The position numbers and the translations under genes are program-made. Below are positions 1,316 to 63,135 of a DNA stretch of 64,000 bases, piece by piece. The notes beneath the pieces are model-generated. The model saw nothing but the letters and a program-made list of their open reading frames with translations, was not told the origin of the DNA and searched no databases. Within the stretch, counting starts at the first letter, position 1, and every line of letters begins with the position of its first letter. The stretch is taken from contig JACOXU010000001.1 of the NCBI GenBank assembly GCA_016182185.1, positions 274,915 to 338,914 of the forward strand. Direction: 5' to 3'. The stretch comes from Candidatus Levyibacteriota bacterium. Its GTDB lineage: Bacteria > Patescibacteriota > Microgenomatia > Levybacterales > UBA12049.

Positions 1316-2989
1316 CTATCTTGTAAACGCCGCTAGAACAGGCTTACCATTCAACAAATAAAACGTTTTAAGCTGTTTAGATTTACTTGGAATTTTATCT
1401 GGCGTACTGATGAAAAGTATTTTTTTCTTATCATTATTTACCAAATCAAGTCTATCCATAAAACGGTATTTATCAAAGGAAAAAACATCAACAAAACCAT
1501 TTACATCTCTATTAATCTCTGCTGTTTCTCTAAACTTACTAGGATTGTAATTCGTGTAAAATAAGTAATATATGTACGGTCTTCCAAGTGAAGATATTAT
1601 TCTTACCTCATCATAGTTATCGTATTGCTGAGAAACGTAATGAATCGATTCCTTATATCCATACTGCCACTCACCAGAATAAATTCTTGGATAATGGACT
1701 ATATAATCACGGAAGAAATATAAAAAATTGAGAAATAATAGCGATAATAAGAGTAAAATTATAGCAATTCTATATTTTTTTACAAAACTTATTAAATTTA
1801 TAAAACCATAGGCAGTAATAATCTGAAAAGTTGGTAACGTCGCTTCAATTCGCAGAGCATGAGGAGTTTCCCGAGCCGTTCCTGCCGGAATTATTCCTAA
1901 AATCAGCCACAATGGAATAATCCACCAAAATCCTTCCTTTTTTTTTATCAGTAAAAATATTCCAGAAATTAAAAAGACTAAATCCCATAGATACATTTGA
2001 CCTACTGTTTGTGTGGAAAACTTGGGATTGCCATCGCCTTTTATGAAAAGAAAGTTAGGGTTTAAATTGTCAAAATAATGCTTAAGATATGAAACACCAT
2101 ATGCTAAGCGGCGATTATGAAGAATTTTTGACCAAAAGGAATTGTTGTCGTTTGCTATTTCTTGGTTTGTATTGGTAATAATTCCAATATCTGAGAAGAT
2201 GTTTACTTCCCTGAACCTAAGACTTGCTTGAGGAGAAAGTAAAAAATTGACTGATGGGATTATTAATAAAATGCCAAGAATAACTGCAAAAATAACTTGC
2301 TTCTTAATCTTGAATAACTCCTTTCGAAAACCTATTGCCAATGCCAAAATTAAAAGCGGGGAAACAATTCGTGCAGTGTTGAAAGTGTATAAAGAAATTG
2401 CAAGCGAGATTATTGAAAGGATAATAAACCATCTGCTTCCTTTAACCGCCCAGAGAAAAAAGATTACTCCCGCAATGATAAAAAACGTTGCGACATTTGC
2501 TTCAAAGGCGGCGCGGGAAAGCATAATATGCCAAGGACTGATTGCCAGAATTAAAGCTGAAAACAAAGCATATAACTCAGTATTTAGTATTTTGTATTTA
2601 GTATTTTGTATTTGTTTAGGATTTAAGATTTCGGATTCAGAATTTGTTTTGAATAGCGTTTTTACTAAAAAGTATGTCATCAATACAGTCAAAACTCCGA
2701 AAAAGGCAGATGGAAAGCGAACACTAAATTCCGAAAGACCAAAAATTTTCACAGGAATTATAGCAAGATATGCATAAACCGGAGGTTTAAAATCGCCAAA
2801 TGACTCCAGATAATCCAAGGGCAAAAATCTTCCGAATTCATCTCGGGCTTCTTTGCCCAGCGAATAAGCATTATATCCCCACGCTGCCTCATCCCAGGTT
2901 AGAGATGGCGGGTTCTGTCCCAGCTGATAAAACCGTAAAAAAGAAGCAATTAATAATATAAAAAATAGAAATATGTAAATTTTTTTCAT
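1316..2989 (-). CDS. ArnT/PMT-like (GT39/GT83-like) GT-C membrane glycosyltransferase, family A paralog
   Basis: 557 aa, multi-TM. The N-terminal loop carries the conserved D-E (WDEAAWGYNAYS) and ISPWH motifs typical of 4-amino-arabinose/dolichyl-P-mannose protein mannosyltransferase-like enzymes. Confidence 0.7.
   Translation of the reverse strand: MKKIYIFLFFILLIASFLRFYQLGQNPPSLTWDEAAWGYNAYSLGKEARDEFGRFLPLDYLESFGDFKPPVYAYLAIIPVKIFGLSEFSVRFPSAFFGVLTVLMTYFLVKTLFKTNSESEILNPKQIQNTKYKILNTELYALFSALILAISPWHIMLSRAAFEANVATFFIIAGVIFFLWAVKGSRWFIILSIISLAISLYTFNTARIVSPLLILALAIGFRKELFKIKKQVIFAVILGILLIIPSVNFLLSPQASLRFREVNIFSDIGIITNTNQEIANDNNSFWSKILHNRRLAYGVSYLKHYFDNLNPNFLFIKGDGNPKFSTQTVGQMYLWDLVFLISGIFLLIKKKEGFWWIIPLWLILGIIPAGTARETPHALRIEATLPTFQIITAYGFINLISFVKKYRIAIILLLLSLLFLNFLYFFRDYIVHYPRIYSGEWQYGYKESIHYVSQQYDNYDEVRIISSLGRPYIYYLFYTNYNPSKFRETAEINRDVNGFVDVFSFDKYRFMDRLDLVNNDKKKILFISTPDKIPSKSKQLKTFYLLNGKPVLAAFTR
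2581..2615. repeat. Heptanucleotide tandem repeat (TATTTAG/TATTTTG, 5 units) inside the family A gene 1316-2989
   Basis: tatttag tattttg tatttag tattttg tatttgt. It encodes QIQNTKYKILNTE in the loop before the ISPWH motif. Confidence 0.7.
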
Positions 2990-58619: not shown

Positions 58620-59541
58620 TATTTCCGGAAATAAAATCAATGAGTCTTAAGGTATCGGAAAATCTATCATCGCTTCTTAAAACTACAATAATTAAAGTGT
58701 GATCTTTCTCAACTTTTGAAGTAATAAGTACACCGCCTGCCTCGTCTGTAAATCCGGTTTTTACCCCGTTGACGCCGTAGGCTCCCAAAAGTTTGTTTAA
58801 ATTCGAAATGTCATAGATATTCACGCCATCAATGTCTGAGATTATCTTTCTTTTGGTAGCAACAATTTGGGATAAGGTTTTATTATCAAGAGATATTGAT
58901 GCAAGCCTGGCCAGATCAATTGGGCTCGCGTAATCCTCATAATCCAGAAGGCCGGCAGGATCTTCAAAATGCATATTGTAAAGATGGAGCCGTCTGGTGT
59001 TCTCATTCATCTTGTCTATAAATGCTTTTTCTCCTCCTGGAAAGTTTTGAGCAATAACGAAAGCGGCATCATTGGCAGATGGCAAAAGCATCGCATATAA
59101 TAAATCTCCGAAAGTCATTCTCTCGCCCTCTGATAAGCCAATCACTGATCCTTCTATTCCGGTTGATTTGACAGTTAAAATATCAGTCAAATCAAAATAT
59201 TCAAGAGCAGTCAGTGCCGTCATTATCTTCGTAGTTGAGGCCGGTGAGAAACGTAAATTTGGATTTTTGCTAAAAAGAACAACAGATGAATCCTTATCCA
59301 TGATAATTGCAGCTTTGGCAGAAATTTCGGGCGGATTTGTATTTTTTAAAAGCGGATAACTATTTACCTTTGTTGTAATTGGGATCGGCAGTATTTGATT
59401 ATTTAATAAAACCTGCTGAATATAGATATCATAGACAGAAATCATAATTAACAACACTACTACAAAAAGAGGGATTAAGAATATATTGGGTTTTGTGAAG
59501 TTTAATACTGCGTGGTCAACTGACCTGAGAATATCTTTCAT
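58594..59541 (-). CDS. D-alanyl-D-alanine carboxypeptidase (S11 peptidase, PBP5/DacA-like)
   Basis: SxxK (SPASTTKIMTA), SxN (LPSANDAA) and KTG (VKTGFTDEAG) motifs, with an N-terminal TM/signal. Confidence 0.8.
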   Translation of the reverse strand: MKDILRSVDHAVLNFTKPNIFLIPLFVVVLLIMISVYDIYIQQVLLNNQILPIPITTKVNSYPLLKNTNPPEISAKAAIIMDKDSSVVLFSKNPNLRFSPASTTKIMTALTALEYFDLTDILTVKSTGIEGSVIGLSEGERMTFGDLLYAMLLPSANDAAFVIAQNFPGGEKAFIDKMNENTRRLHLYNMHFEDPAGLLDYEDYASPIDLARLASISLDNKTLSQIVATKRKIISDIDGVNIYDISNLNKLLGAYGVNGVKTGFTDEAGGVLITSKVEKDHTLIIVVLRSDDRFSDTLRLIDFISGNINYLTIRP

Positions 59542-60871
59542 CGACTCTCTCCATATCTCTTGGGAAAAGACTTGCCTCTCTAATATTTGACAGTCCTAAA
59601 ATATCCTTAGTCAATCTCTCAAGTCCCATGGCAAATCCTCCCTCAGGCGGCATACCATATGAGAATGCCTGAAGATAAATCCCAAAATTTTCAGGCTTGT
59701 TTTTCCATTTGACAATATTTTCCATCAGTCTGTTATAGTCATTGATTCTTTGACTTCCTGTAACCCATTCCTCATTTATACCCAAAAGATCAAAACTTAA
59801 AGTGTAATCGGGGTTTTCTGAATCAGGCATGGTATAAAACGGTCTTTTTTTAGTCGGATAATGAGTTATAAATACAAATGGCGCACCGTATTCCTCCTTG
59901 GCCCATTTGCATATTTCTTTCTCATCAAAGGGGTCAAGATCCATTTCCTTTCTGTGATCAGTTTTGGTTCTCTTGAAAATTATTTCTTGGGCTTCCTGCA
60001 TCTTAATTCTTGGGATTTTCTTTTTTATCTGAAAGACTGAAGTATTGAATAGTCTAAGTTCATTTTGATTCTTGCTATTAACCTCTTCAAGCATATTTAA
60101 GACTATTTTTTCTGCCATATCCATAAGTTCTTTCCATGAATTGATAAACCCGAATTCCGCATCAAGACTTATGTATTCTGATAAATGTCTGGTTGTCACC
60201 GAAGGTTCTGCTCTATAGGCATGTGCGATTGTAAAAACCCGTTCATAAATTGAAGTCATGATTTGCTTATACATTTGAGGTGATTGAGCAAGATAAGCCT
60301 TGTGATTATAATAGTCAACAGGAAATACTTCCGCTCCTCCTTCAGTTGCAGTTGGAACAAGGGTAGGAACAAAAATTTCTGTAAAATTTTCCTTCTTCAG
60401 CGTTTCCCTAAATGATCCAACAAGTGTTTCCTGAACTTTAAAAATGGCTGAGACTTTGGGATGGCGAAGCGTTAAAGAACGATTATCAAGAAGAGTAGGC
60501 AGTTCAAGATTTAATTCTTCTCCCCCCATGTCAAAGGGCAATGGATTTGCTTTTGCGATAACCTTAATATCTTTTACTTCGATTTCTATTTCTCCGGTCG
60601 GTAAATCCTTATTCACCGTTCCTGATGGTCTTGCTTTTACATTTCCCATTATCTCTATTACAAATTCCGGTTTTATATCCAAGGCAGTTTTATAGGTATT
60701 TTCGGCTATTTTAGGATTTACAACCAATTGAACGATTCCACCTCTGTCTCTTAAATCAAAAAAAATAAGTTTTCCATGATCTCTTCTGGTCTTAACCCAG
60801 CCTTTTAGTAGCACCTCTTTACCTATCAACTCAGGGGCTCCAGAGGAAAGACTTCTTTTTAATTGTTCCAT
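59516..60871 (-). CDS. aspS: Class IIb aspartyl(/asparaginyl)-tRNA synthetase, archaeal/eukaryal-type AspRS-like
   Basis: N-terminal OB-fold LLKGWVKTRRDHGKLIFFDLRDRGGIVQLVV, AQSPQMYKQ, motif 2 AHAYRAEPSVTTRHLSEYISLDAE and motif 3 GGFAMGLERL. 451 aa. Confidence 0.7.
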   Translation of the reverse strand: MEQLKRSLSSGAPELIGKEVLLKGWVKTRRDHGKLIFFDLRDRGGIVQLVVNPKIAENTYKTALDIKPEFVIEIMGNVKARPSGTVNKDLPTGEIEIEVKDIKVIAKANPLPFDMGGEELNLELPTLLDNRSLTLRHPKVSAIFKVQETLVGSFRETLKKENFTEIFVPTLVPTATEGGAEVFPVDYYNHKAYLAQSPQMYKQIMTSIYERVFTIAHAYRAEPSVTTRHLSEYISLDAEFGFINSWKELMDMAEKIVLNMLEEVNSKNQNELRLFNTSVFQIKKKIPRIKMQEAQEIIFKRTKTDHRKEMDLDPFDEKEICKWAKEEYGAPFVFITHYPTKKRPFYTMPDSENPDYTLSFDLLGINEEWVTGSQRINDYNRLMENIVKWKNKPENFGIYLQAFSYGMPPEGGFAMGLERLTKDILGLSNIREASLFPRDMERVDERYSQVS

Positions 60872-60901
60872 TAGCTCTCATTTTACCTTGATTTTACCCT
60901 C

Positions 60902-60930
60902 TTGACAAGGTATATTTAACTTGATATATA
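60902..60930 (+). promoter_or_regulatory. Sigma70-like promoter TTGACA-17-TATATA upstream of a candidate leader peptide
   Basis: TTGACA at 60902-60907 and TATATA at 60925-60930. The ATG of a 16-codon ORF lies at 60943. Confidence 0.45.
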
Positions 60931-60942
60931 TTGATATAGAAC

Positions 60943-60993
60943 ATGAAATTATCTTTGCACACAATTAAGCCTATTTCCCTCTTTATTGTATAA
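60943..60993 (+). CDS. Candidate leader peptide (MKLSLHTIKPISLFIV) of an attenuator
   Basis: 16 codons plus TAA. The stop codon lies inside the loop of the first of three overlapping alternative hairpins. Confidence 0.3.
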   Translation: MKLSLHTIKPISLFIV

Positions 60994-61016
60994 GAGGGAG
61001 GAGGTTTTGTGAAAAT

Positions 61017-61050
61017 CCTCCCAATATTTAAAAACGGGAGGTTTTTTATT
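61017..61050 (+). terminator. Intrinsic terminator-like hairpin (CCTCCC-N13-GGGAGG + TTTTTTATTT) with an upstream competing antiterminator pairing
   Basis: Segment 60996-61004 (GGGAGGAGG) can pair with 61017-61022 (CCTCCC), which alternatively pairs with 61036-61041 (GGGAGG) followed by a T-run. Hairpin 60977-60983 / 60992-60998 (CCCTCTT/AAGAGGG) overlaps the first segment. Confidence 0.4.
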
Positions 61051-61059
61051 TAAGAAACT

Positions 61060-61359
61060 ATGAATAGACAAGAGAAAATAAATGGTTCAAGAAGAATCTC
61101 TGTGCATGATATGCCTGATTTTACTGCCGCACTGGAGCAGTACGGAGAGATATTAAAAACGACAGGGGTGCCTCCTGCCCGCGCAGAAGCATGTACAATG
61201 GGTATTATAGATAAAGCATCAACAAAAAGAGAAGAGGCTAATAGGTTTATTAATTTTGTTGCAAAATTATCTAAAGAAATTCAGAATGGAAATGGAAATC
61301 ACCAAGAAGAGGTCGTCGTTTTCAGCGCTAAAAATGGTTCAGGGAATGGATCGGCGTAA
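61060..61359 (+). CDS. Hypothetical 99-aa protein downstream of the attenuator-like leader
   Basis: ORF with higher GC than neighbours and no recognisable motifs. It overlaps the recJ 3' end convergently by 21 nt. Confidence 0.35.
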   Translation: MNRQEKINGSRRISVHDMPDFTAALEQYGEILKTTGVPPARAEACTMGIIDKASTKREEANRFINFVAKLSKEIQNGNGNHQEEVVVFSAKNGSGNGSA

Positions 61360-63135
61360 ATCCTTGATCTTAAGCTGGAGCTTGCTGTTTCCATTCCATT
61401 CATTTTTTTCAATTTGATAGACAAGATCAATTCTGTCGCCTATTCGAATTTCATTTGAACGCTCACCCATCCCAAACCCTATGCCTTCAATTTTGAGATT
61501 TGAAATTTGAGTTTTGAGATTTAATTTTAGGTGCCTCCCATCCATTCCGACCAGTCTCATATCTTCAATAATTATATTTTTACTCACAAAGGCAGGTTGG
61601 GAATTCCCCATTCCAAACGGAGCAAGTTTTTGCAAAACATTATAGAATTCTTCATTCAAATAATTAATATCAAATTCACAATCGATATAAAGACTTCTGA
61701 CAAACAAGTCTTGAGTTAAAATTTTATCCGCGAGTTTTTCAAGTTTTTTTTGAAGAAGCTCAAGGTTTATTGTTTCGACTGTAAATCCTGCAGCCATCGG
61801 ATGGCCTCCGACATCGACTAATAAATCTGATGCGCTTCTGATAAACTCGACTATATTGAATCCGCTGATCGACCTTGCTGATGCCTTAGAATAAATTTCT
61901 CCTTTTGAGATAACAATAGAGGGTCGATAAAATTCCTCAACTAATTTTCCTGCTATCAATCCGATGACTCCCTGCTGGTACGATTTATCTGCTATTAAAA
62001 GAAGTTTTGGAATTTGTGATTTGGAATTTGTGATTTGAAGTCTTGCGTGTTCAAAAGATTTAAGTGTGATTTCTTGTCTTTTTCTATTGGTATGCCCTAA
62101 TTTGTAAGCCAGATCTTTCGCTCTTTCTTTACTCTTAGTACAAAGGAGTCTTAAGCTATCCATTGCGTACTCAAGCCTGCCCATGGCATTAAGACGCGGA
62201 GCAATAATATGTCCAATTTCATATACGCCAATTAAAACTTGATCGATTCCCGTTTCTTCAATTATTGCCAAAAGGCCGGGTCTTTTGGTTTTCCTTAATT
62301 CCTCAAGACCGAATTTTACAAAAGTCCTATTTGCACCCTTTAAAGGAACCAGATCCGCAATTGTTGCCAAAGCAACAAGTTCAAGATGTCCAAGCGAGGA
62401 GTCCACAAAATTTTCGTTGTGAGCTTTTGCGCCACCTGCGTTTCGGGTTGAGGGAGATTTGACCGCACTGCGAACACGAAAATTTTTGCGGGCGACTTCA
62501 GCATTTATTTCTTGCGCCAGCAAGAATGCTACTCCTGCCCCGCAGACTTGTGTAGTATGGACAAAACTGTAGGCTTTGGGCAATTTTTGTGCCGATACAT
62601 GATGATCTGTAATAATTACATCAATCCCCTCTCTATTGGCAAGATCGACGGCATCATTTGCTACAATTCCATTATCAACAGTGATAATCAAAGAACAATT
62701 TTTTCCGTCCAACTGGCGGATTAAATTTTTAATTCCTGTCTTCGACAGTCCGTACCCTTCATCCATTCTGTGAGGAATATATGGCAATACTTTTGCACCT
62801 AAATCATTTAAGGTTTCCCATAAAATAGCAGTCCCGCAAATTCCATCTACATCATAATCACCATAAATAACAATTTCCTCCTTGCTTATAATCGCTCTAT
62901 TGATTCGGGCAATCGCTTTCTTAAGCTGTTTTTTATCGATGCCAACACTTGAAATCGTTACATCTGAAAGCTTTGGATTTAAAAATTTTTCCTTTTCTTT
63001 TTCGGTTTTAATTCCCCGATTTTCAAGAAGAACGTTTAAAATTTCTTCGATCTTTAATTTTTTATTTTTTATTTTGCCCGCCCCGCTTCGCTTGTCGAGG
63101 CCGGGGAATTTATTTACGATTTTCCATTTTTTCAT
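61339..63135 (-). CDS. recJ: Single-stranded-DNA-specific exonuclease RecJ (DHH/DHHA1)
   Basis: DHH motifs IYGDYDVDGICGTAIL and VIITDHH, a DHHA1-like region (GGHPMAAG) and a C-terminal OB-like domain. 598 aa. It contains two heptamer repeat tracts and GC-rich insert patches. Confidence 0.85.
   Translation of the reverse strand: MKKWKIVNKFPGLDKRSGAGKIKNKKLKIEEILNVLLENRGIKTEKEKEKFLNPKLSDVTISSVGIDKKQLKKAIARINRAIISKEEIVIYGDYDVDGICGTAILWETLNDLGAKVLPYIPHRMDEGYGLSKTGIKNLIRQLDGKNCSLIITVDNGIVANDAVDLANREGIDVIITDHHVSAQKLPKAYSFVHTTQVCGAGVAFLLAQEINAEVARKNFRVRSAVKSPSTRNAGGAKAHNENFVDSSLGHLELVALATIADLVPLKGANRTFVKFGLEELRKTKRPGLLAIIEETGIDQVLIGVYEIGHIIAPRLNAMGRLEYAMDSLRLLCTKSKERAKDLAYKLGHTNRKRQEITLKSFEHARLQITNSKSQIPKLLLIADKSYQQGVIGLIAGKLVEEFYRPSIVISKGEIYSKASARSISGFNIVEFIRSASDLLVDVGGHPMAAGFTVETINLELLQKKLEKLADKILTQDLFVRSLYIDCEFDINYLNEEFYNVLQKLAPFGMGNSQPAFVSKNIIIEDMRLVGMDGRHLKLNLKTQISNLKIEGIGFGMGERSNEIRIGDRIDLVYQIEKNEWNGNSKLQLKIKDLRRSIP
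61492..61526. repeat. Heptanucleotide tandem repeat (TTTGARA-like, 5 units) inside recJ
   Basis: tttgaga tttgaaa tttgagt tttgaga tttaatt. It encodes KTQISNLKIEG. Confidence 0.7.
62005..62039. repeat. Heptanucleotide tandem repeat (ATTTGTG/ATTTGGA, 5 units) inside recJ
   Basis: ttttgga atttgtg atttgga atttgtg atttgaa. It encodes QITNSKSQIPK. Confidence 0.7.

Follow-up and report, generated by a model that had tools for sequence, protein, structure and literature searches.

A candidate ribosome-mediated transcription attenuator with exchangeable downstream genes in Microgenomates bacteria

Introduction

Does the RNA made next to aspS in a Candidatus Levybacteriota bacterium use a short open reading frame (ORF) at its 5' end to decide whether transcription continues into the following gene? 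The region in question lies in a 64,000-nucleotide (nt) stretch of contig JACOXU010000001.1 (assembly GCA_016182185.1, positions 274,915-338,914, forward strand), which as a whole is designated the window. The element under study occupies the intergenic region between aspS and a divergently oriented ORF of 99 amino acids (aa), the "cargo" ORF. A first-pass annotation had placed a promoter, a 16-codon leader ORF, a series of pairing segments, a U-tract and the 99-aa ORF in this region, and had read the alternative pairings 1:2, 2:3 and 3:4 as the logic of a ribosome-mediated attenuator. All of these features are present at the positions that it gave (Table 1).

Bacteria of the candidate phyla radiation (CPR), or Patescibacteria, are tiny-genomed organisms in which regulation is usually described as sparse. 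Our literature searches found no paper linking CPR/Patescibacteria to leader-peptide attenuation. Here, we analyse the element together with its relatives, and conclude, with a probability of roughly 0.65, that it is a ribosome-mediated (leader-peptide) transcription attenuator.

Results

The unit recurs at the aspS-divergent site of Microgenomates

Using aspartyl-tRNA synthetase as the anchor, we fetched 160 loci from genomes and metagenomes. A promoter-leader-terminator unit is found directly upstream of aspS, in the same orientation as in the window, in 34 distinct sequences, and five more were found later; the number of distinct relatives with the unit is at least 36. The carriers include Levybacteria, Gottesmanbacteria (L020), Roizmanbacteria (L023 and L029) and unclassified Patescibacteria, all of which are Microgenomates within the CPR. 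aspS itself is not regulated by the element and served for finding the relatives.

The conserved unit begins with (C)TTGACA(AG), followed by a −10 box at the 17-nt spacing seen in the window and by an ATG 8-18 nt past the −10 box that lacks a Shine-Dalgarno (SD) sequence. The rest of the unit consists of an ORF of 10-28 codons, a long hairpin, and a GC-rich hairpin with a U-run. This last hairpin and its U-run are kept in all complete relatives, in which the downstream ORF starts 10-40 nt beyond the U-run. The TTGACA-17-TATATA promoter and the ORF 12 nt further on, both named in the first-pass annotation, were checked in the sequence and recur in the relatives. Because a TG lies one base 5' of TATATA, the −10 box is of the extended type; it presumably functions as such and would place the transcription start at about 60936-60938.

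Sequence and covariance-model searches indicate one copy of the unit per locus, always at the aspS-divergent site, and no second copy was found in the window or elsewhere in the loci with nhmmer and the models R1 and R2. At L116 (about 1500-2300, minus strand of the locus), two promoter-leader-small-gene units are arranged in tandem. A TTGACA, a small ORF (MVFSCRHFIKQYILLPE and MNLVVKHGMYFITLLI), the four segments and a U-run are present in both, so that the entire module has been duplicated at this locus.

The leader RNA is predicted to form three mutually exclusive helices

The minimum free energy (MFE) of the RNA from 60937 to 61062 is −34.6 kcal/mol, compared with −20.9 ± 3.3 kcal/mol in 200 dinucleotide shuffles (z = −4.2), none of which is as stable. 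Hairpin 1 had been described as CCCTCTT paired with AAGAGGG, with the stop codon in its loop. That pairing is present, but it is just the apex of a longer imperfect hairpin spanning 60960-61011. Specifically, the two strands belong to a 10-base-pair stem (60974-60983 with 60992-61001) closed by an 8-nt loop that ends with the T of the stop codon, and per-sequence folding shows that the small ORF makes up the whole 5' strand of the longer hairpin. Its helices in the window are CACAA/UUGUG, AGCCU/AGGUU and UUUCCCUCUU/AAGAGGGAGG. Segment 1 thus lies wholly within the leader ORF, while the last two bases of the stop codon are the first two bases of segment 2. In the relatives the full 1:2 hairpin measures roughly 50-90 nt, and its 3' strand consists of the purine-rich segment 2 and a conserved linker such as UUGGAAAGAA.

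The core of segment 2, GGGAGGAGG at 60996-61004, contains the letters that can pair with segment 3 instead. Segment 3 (CCUCCC, 61017-61022) can in turn pair with segment 4 (GGGAGG, 61036-61041) across a 13-nt loop, with an AAAA/UUUU extension flanking the stem. A U-tract at 61042-61051 follows, the letters after GGGAGG being TTTTTTATTT. The predicted energies in the window are −22.6, −12.3 and −9.2 kcal/mol for 1:2, 2:3 and 3:4, respectively, which is the order of an attenuator, and when segment 1 is blocked, the 2:3 pairing becomes the MFE structure.

Plain MAFFT alignment followed by RNAalifold on the full set recovered the apical stem alone. The MAFFT alignments are structurally inconsistent because the low-complexity helices slip in register; therefore, two gap-free sequences and the fold that they share were used to build a covariance model, followed by a single iteration. 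The score of the window is 33.8 bits under the first model and 67.4 bits (E about 1e-11) under the second. In the 18-sequence covariance-model alignment (a 14-sequence version was also made), 88.9% of the cells are paired, compared with 75.3% in column shuffles and 44-64% when the partners are slid by 1-3 columns. Double-sided changes are present in 28 of the 32 pairs of these model-fitted alignments. Shuffles give 14.0 ± 2.2 such pairs, with none of 500 attaining the observed number, and the slid controls give 5-14. Because the slid controls are low and the helix sequences are very different between lineages, we regard the helices as real. The outer helix, for instance, reads UUCUUUCCAA/UUGGAAAGAA in L003, GCU-UAUCU-CAAACG/CGUUUGAGAUAGC in L090 and GUCACACG/CGUGUGAG in L005. 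The terminator (helices 5-6 of the 18-sequence model) covaries as well.

The 2:3 helix also co-evolves. Among 19 lineages, native duplexes of segment 2 with segment 3 have a mean energy of −12.75 kcal/mol, compared with −9.31 kcal/mol for swapped partners, and none of 10,000 permutations is as low. Private extensions of this helix occur in single lineages: GGUCGC/GCGACC in L020, GGGAGAUAUUG/CAAUAUUCUCCC in L104, GGAGGUAAU/AUUACCUCC in L132, AAAUUC/GAAUU in L122 and AUUUA/UAAAU in L082. In L131 and L027, the conformer with 2:3 and 1:4 is the MFE structure outright. The private extensions and the partner-swap result argue that the 2:3 helix is more than a by-product of purine/pyrimidine composition. 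Recurrence of the unit at a syntenic site, covariation of its hairpins, co-evolution of the 2:3 complementarity and the order of the energies together support the 1:2/2:3/3:4 logic that had been proposed from the window. A lack of conservation or covariation among relatives had been named in the first-pass annotation as a refutation of its proposal; the relatives show both.

A conserved U-rich stretch (UUUGUUGG or UUUUGUG) comes straight after the 1:2 hairpin, at 61002-61011 in the window and at homologous positions in the relatives. A simple promoter/terminator scan scores this stretch as terminator-like, and likewise calls hairpin 1 terminator-like. By analogy with the trp leader, RNA polymerase could pause at this stretch and so keep transcription in step with translation.

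Features of the leader ORF that suggest translation

A start codon is present in 34 of 34 elements, with GTG in place of ATG in L021 and L099, and the AUG is unpaired in most predicted folds. In a structure-blind MAFFT alignment, the ORF has five separate 3-nt gaps and one 1-nt gap, the latter in L094, where the ORF ends early; gap lengths in the non-coding remainder are not divisible by three. Throughout the Levybacteria group, the stop codon falls where the apical loop of hairpin 1 meets its 3' arm, and the codon alignment of this group gives the peptide consensus M-x-[LF]-S-[LF]-N-x-I-K-x-x-x-L-F-I-K. Column entropies at codon positions 1, 2 and 3 are 0.96, 0.78 and 1.09, respectively. Changes at Ile8 and Lys9 are mostly synonymous or conservative (ATT/ATA/ATC and AAG/AAA/AGG). 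In 24 of the 34 sequences, frame 0 stays open longer than the other two frames.

Counted from the predicted transcription start, the leader ORF would begin about 5-7 nt into the transcript. An SD-like motif is found within 20 nt of the first ATG in only 8 of the 43 window ORFs of at least 150 aa. In the relatives L100 and L110, which have no leader, the ATG of the cargo protein itself stands at the leader-ATG distance from the same promoter. The scarcity of SD motifs and this placement of the cargo ATG make SD-less translation plausible. Several long ORFs of the window have a −10-like box a few bases before the ATG. These crude start assignments suggest that SD-independent or leaderless initiation may be widespread in this Levybacterium.

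In the seven sequences read (the window, L081, L082, L001, L003, L004 and L031), the SD-like purine run in segment 2 is followed at a distance of 4-7 nt by a second start codon. It is GTG at 61009 in the window, and UUG, AUG or GUG in the others. The small ORF that it opens in the window (61009-61053, preceded by GGAGG at 61000-61004) was considered as a conserved feature and rejected, because its frame relative to CCUCCC differs among the relatives and because it crosses the terminator in some (14-17 codons) but has 2 codons in L082 and is a start-stop in L031. The second start codon may be a chance occurrence in U/G-rich sequence, or a coupling site.

Ribosome position is predicted to decide terminator formation

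The ribosome was modelled as a footprint that reaches 15 nt upstream and 14 nt downstream, counted from the A-site codon's first base. In the window, the terminator stem has a probability of 0.99 both without a ribosome and with a ribosome at the stop codon, where segment 2 is covered. With the A-site at codons 8, 9 and 10, the probability falls to 0.05, 0.00 and 0.10, respectively, and these are the sole positions at which the terminator is predicted to be lost. Folding with and without a footprint, which the first-pass annotation had named as a check of its proposal, is favourable to it, with a change from 0.99 to at most 0.1. A mid-ORF dip is also predicted in 17 of 26 four-segment relatives. 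The critical codons 8-10 encode I, K and P in the window, and I-K-x is conserved in the Levybacteria group.

Five relatives (L007, L009, L096, L021 and L099) have a two-segment form, in which the ORF ends at or inside the 5' arm of a single terminator hairpin. In both forms, the position of the ribosome on the small ORF is predicted to decide whether the terminator forms, and the sign of the response may differ between the two.

The leader is conserved while the downstream gene is replaced

Among 1.84 billion representatives, six clusters are real homologues of the 99-aa product; the motif that they share is PVHDMPDF..AAL..Y..L...VPP.D...RR.GN.FINFV..LS. The product is predicted to form a three-helix bundle (predicted local distance difference test score, pLDDT, 70.5). 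It has no match in Pfam, NCBIfam, PDB sequences or PDB folds. A protein of 695 aa with tandem repeats of roughly 80 aa (P0005) matched the 99-aa query in seven stretches (E = 2.5e-5); this match looks like an artefact of composition or of the repeats, not like homology. The first-pass annotation had called the 99-aa ORF compositionally distinct. It is not notably so, since its GC content is 0.41 and that of neighbouring genes is 0.33-0.46.

The proteins encoded in the downstream slot of the relatives (L001-L145) fall into at least three unrelated BLAST clusters and many singletons. In close relatives, DNA homology covers aspS and continues across the promoter and the leader, breaks off right behind the terminator and SD, and begins again in recJ. 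Conservation of the leader thus goes together with replacement of the cargo that lies between the terminator/SD and the 3' end of recJ. Near-identical leaders precede unrelated cargo in L003/L089 and in L085/L088, which makes autoregulation by the cargo protein unlikely. In the relatives, the cargo ORFs have a strong SD of their own immediately past the U-tract; no SD precedes the cargo ORF in the window.

A chorismate mutase as cargo, with Phe as the sensed amino acid, was considered because of the sub-threshold Phe_leader match described in the Discussion and of weak Foldseek matches to AroQ chorismate mutases (E = 5-9). It was rejected: hhalign against the chorismate-mutase domain of E. coli PheA gives a probability of 0.4%, and the leader peptides have no Phe runs.

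Discussion

Proposed mechanism

The following mechanism is the most likely one. A strong σ70-type promoter would start an RNA in which an SD-less AUG comes after the first few nucleotides. The 16-codon leader ORF would serve as the 5' strand (segment 1) of a very stable hairpin with the purine-rich segment 2. Without a ribosome the 1:2 hairpin would form, whereas with a ribosome at the stop codon the footprint would cover segment 2; either state would leave CCUCCC free. The free segment 3 would then pair with GGGAGG (segment 4), and this hairpin and the U-tract would terminate transcription about 10 nt before the cargo gene. A ribosome held at about codons 7-11, which include Ile-Lys-x in the Levybacteria group, would mask segment 1 and leave segment 2 accessible. 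In this case segments 2 and 3 would pair, no terminator would form, and RNA polymerase would read into the small cargo gene.

In this scheme we infer the transcription start, the translation of the leader, the termination and the stall signal. What is sensed may be stalled ribosomes, the cause of the stall being a limiting amino acid or tRNA or a more general translation stress, an assignment in which our confidence is low. Phe, Leu, Ile, Ser and Lys are abundant in the leader peptides, and acidic residues are scarce. Phe is present in all 34 peptides (mean 2.0), with one Phe in that of the window.

Several observations speak against a ribosome-mediated attenuator. A tandem run of one amino acid is absent from the 34 leader peptides examined, so the sensed amino acid is not identifiable and classical sensing logic is not demonstrated. 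The codon periodicity of the leader ORF is modest, and base pairing also constrains much of the ORF. The ATG, which has no SD, lies 8-18 nt past the −10 box, and with a predicted start this makes the mRNA short-leadered, not strictly leaderless. The equilibrium model gives no clear antitermination dip in 9 of the 26 four-segment relatives. The two-segment form would have the opposite logic: the terminator would be occluded by a ribosome that has reached the end of the ORF, and translation would give read-through. The covariation counts, coming from model-fitted alignments, lean towards structure. Finally, the default state is predicted termination, so the main product could be an RNA of ~105 nt or the 16-aa peptide.

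Alternative explanations

Default termination (P = 0.99) would also suit a stand-alone small gene that makes a structured RNA of ~105-110 nt (a trans-acting small RNA), a 16-aa micropeptide or both, with the downstream ORFs expressed by leaky read-through and no switch involved. A near-consensus promoter and a terminator bracket the unit as they would such a gene, conservation is much stronger in the leader than in the downstream genes, in whose place even close relatives have unrelated ORFs, and the peptide has a recognisable consensus. Outside the Levybacteria group, however, the peptide sequence is loosely conserved, and a stand-alone gene has no need of a segment 2/3 helix whose stability exceeds that of the terminator and which co-evolves lineage by lineage. 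Moreover, cargo ORFs with a strong SD right after the U-tract have no room for a promoter of their own and therefore depend on read-through. We consider a stand-alone gene unlikely. A switch operated by a factor or ligand without translation, the small ORF being incidental, is also improbable in our view. Such a factor might be a protein, for example a chaperone on the pyrimidine-rich segment 1, or a metabolite. In its favour, attenuators of the PyrR, TRAP and riboswitch types share the three-helix logic, the long hairpin shows strong conservation with covariation, and there is a weak sub-threshold Rfam match to the PyrR binding site (19.8 bits). Against this stand the invariant start codon with its ATG to GTG swap, the 3-nt gaps and the fixed stop position, for which there is no explanation without translation. 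In addition, no Rfam family is matched at threshold, the helices leave no conserved unpaired pocket, and the near-identical leaders before unrelated cargo in L003/L089 and L085/L088 speak against the cargo protein as the factor.

The possibility that the arrangement arose by chance, or that it has no regulatory role and merely acts between recJ and aspS as an insulator or a (bidirectional) terminator, is very slight. It is true that purine-rich and pyrimidine-rich low-complexity segments pair readily, that termination in both directions could result from the A-tract ahead of CCUCCC and the U-tract behind GGGAGG, and that opposite-strand model matches overlap the terminator. Nevertheless, the plus-strand U-run, promoter, start codon and long hairpin are kept over wide divergence with compensatory changes, and no equivalent hairpin is found after recJ in L095 and L098, which have lost both leader and cargo. 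A minus-strand aspS leader or T-box was rejected on the grounds that it is the plus strand that has the conserved U-run, promoter and start codon, that the aspS promoter lies between the element and aspS, and that no Rfam T-box is matched. 6S RNA (6S-1 of B. subtilis is located close to aspS), signal recognition particle RNA and other housekeeping RNAs were rejected likewise, there being no Rfam match and two hairpins in about 105 nt being a poor fit.

Comparison with known attenuators

At the gathering threshold of Rfam 15, no family is found in the element or in 10 relatives. The best sub-threshold match is RF01859 (Phe_leader), at 27.5 bits (E = 0.0098, full length) in the window and 31.1 bits in L082, compared with a gathering score of 55; the same model gives no match at E of at most 1 in eight other relatives. 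The hallmarks of Phe_leader, consecutive Phe codons and a downstream pheA, are absent from the window element. The pheA leader and the window element have in common a pyrimidine-rich/purine-rich hairpin and a terminator of the form CCUCCCAA...GGGAGG-U6, which accounts for Phe_leader being the best Rfam match. The resemblance is one of architecture, not of homology.

The enterobacterial leaders as a class (trpL, pheL/pheA, pheM, hisL, leuL and ilv; RF00513 and RF01859) resemble the element in the short 5' ORF over segment 1 with its stop just before segment 2, in the exclusive 1:2, 2:3 and 3:4 helices, in a terminator just upstream of the gene, and in the energy order 1:2 > 2:3 > 3:4. In contrast to them, the window element has no tandem regulatory codons and no SD, its 5' untranslated region (UTR) is probably a few nt long, and its host belongs to the CPR. 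The regulated gene also differs, being a small, fast-replaced protein rather than an amino-acid biosynthesis or tRNA-synthetase gene. Two-segment relatives are similar to pyrBI-type coupling or terminator occlusion, in that a ribosome close behind RNA polymerase would block the terminator; the window element differs from that type in being four-segment, and no nucleotide-sensitive pause signal was identified in it.

According to the abstract-level account of Canestrari et al. (10.1101/834739), leaderless polycysteine small ORFs (sORFs) of mycobacteria start at the 5' end of the transcript, contain Cys runs, sense cysteine and unmask the next gene's ribosome-binding site. As far as that account goes, the element is similar to them in having an SD-less sensory ORF at the 5' end and in that ribosome stalling would remodel the downstream RNA and control the next gene. 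It differs in that the ORF probably begins a few nt from the 5' end, in the intrinsic-terminator platform, and in the lack of an amino-acid run; Cys makes up 0.8% of the leader residues. Antibiotic-responsive attenuators of Firmicutes and Actinobacteria (vmlR, msrD, lmrC and yxjB; PMC8546547, PMC6851288 and 10.1101/2021.11.29.470318), taken from titles, abstracts and general knowledge, are similar in combining a short, run-free ORF with a terminator. In these systems, as summarised there, a ribosome stall in the ORF leads to read-through, making them general translation-stress sensors, and they regulate resistance factors (ABC-F proteins and methyltransferases), whereas the window cargo matches no family. 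No drug-arrest motif stood out on reading the leader peptides, in which no scan aimed at such motifs was made.

Taken as an attenuator, the element belongs to a previously uncatalogued family in Microgenomates, characterised by an SD-less 5'-proximal ORF, the lack of a regulatory codon run and swappable cargo. A further interpretation, which we regard as doubtful, is that the promoter-leader unit is a portable "translation-stress gate" that stays fixed in these bacteria while unrelated small proteins are exchanged behind it, or that the ~105-nt RNA and the 16-aa peptide form a dual-function gene. As a gate, it might control host-interaction, defence or toxin-like proteins. Either version, if true, would be a regulatory architecture not described for reduced-genome symbionts. 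If the attenuator reading is true, CPR bacteria use ribosome-sensing transcription control, an SD-less ORF very near the 5' end can act as a sensor, and the sensor can stay constant while the regulated gene is exchanged. The models R1 and R2 would then provide a defined RNA family for the annotation of Microgenomates genomes, and the element would offer a testable handle on the stress monitored by uncultivated symbionts.

Neighbouring genes and divergent promoters

Table 1. Features of the element and its neighbours, in window coordinates
Feature	Position	Strand	Remarks
−35 box, TTGACA	60902-60907	+	Invariant in all aligned relatives
Putative extended −10 box, TG-a-TATATA	60922-60930	+	TATATA at 60925-60930; 17-nt spacer from −35
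Leader ORF, MKLSLHTIKPISLFIV and TAA	60943-60993	+	16 codons; ATG 12 nt after −10; no SD
Segment 1, 5' strand of the long 1:2 hairpin (CACAA, AGCCU, UUUCCCUCUU)	60960-60983	+	Folding, covariation
Segment 2, purine-rich 3' strand of the 1:2 hairpin (AAGAGGGAGGAGGUUUUGUG)	60992-61011	+	Folding
Predicted antiterminator 2:3, GGGAGGA (60996-61002) with UCCUCCC (61016-61022)	60996-61022	+	Folding, co-evolution
Predicted intrinsic terminator 3:4	61012-61051	+	Folding, conservation, covariation
Cargo ORF, 99 aa	61060-61359	+	
aspS (aspartyl-tRNA synthetase)	59516-60871	minus	tRNA-synt_2 and OB-fold domains
recJ	61339-63135	minus	Convergent with the 99-aa ORF

The Rfam 15 scan of the 64-kb window at gathering thresholds found two tRNAs and nothing else. 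The 99-aa ORF and recJ overlap tail to tail by 21 nt (61339-61359). No terminator-like site follows the 99-aa ORF on the plus strand before 62267; therefore, read-through from the leader would run antisense into recJ.

On the opposite side of the element, the promoter/terminator scan calls a minus-strand promoter, TTGTCA-17-TAAAAT at 60908-60880. The aspS promoter (60880-60908, minus) and the leader promoter (60902-60930, plus) thus stand back to back. The plus-strand TTGACA overlaps the TTGTCA that forms the −35 box of the aspS promoter (60908-60903), the two boxes lying in the palindrome-like CTTGACAAG, and this overlap common to both promoters is invariant among the relatives. The ATG of aspS (60871) comes just 8 nt after its TAAAAT −10 box, so the aspS mRNA is probably leaderless or nearly so.

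In many relatives, the aspS 5' UTR consists of tandem heptamers that vary in copy number and read (GTCAAAT)4 or (GATAAAT)4 on the strand of aspS; examples between the shared promoter and the aspS start are at about 3960-3990 in L003 and about 2100-2140 in L001. The tandem array is absent from the window, which has just two copies of GGTAAAAT. The promoter scan of the window also finds an antisense promoter-like sequence inside the leader, TTCACA-17-TACAAT at 61013-60985 on the minus strand.

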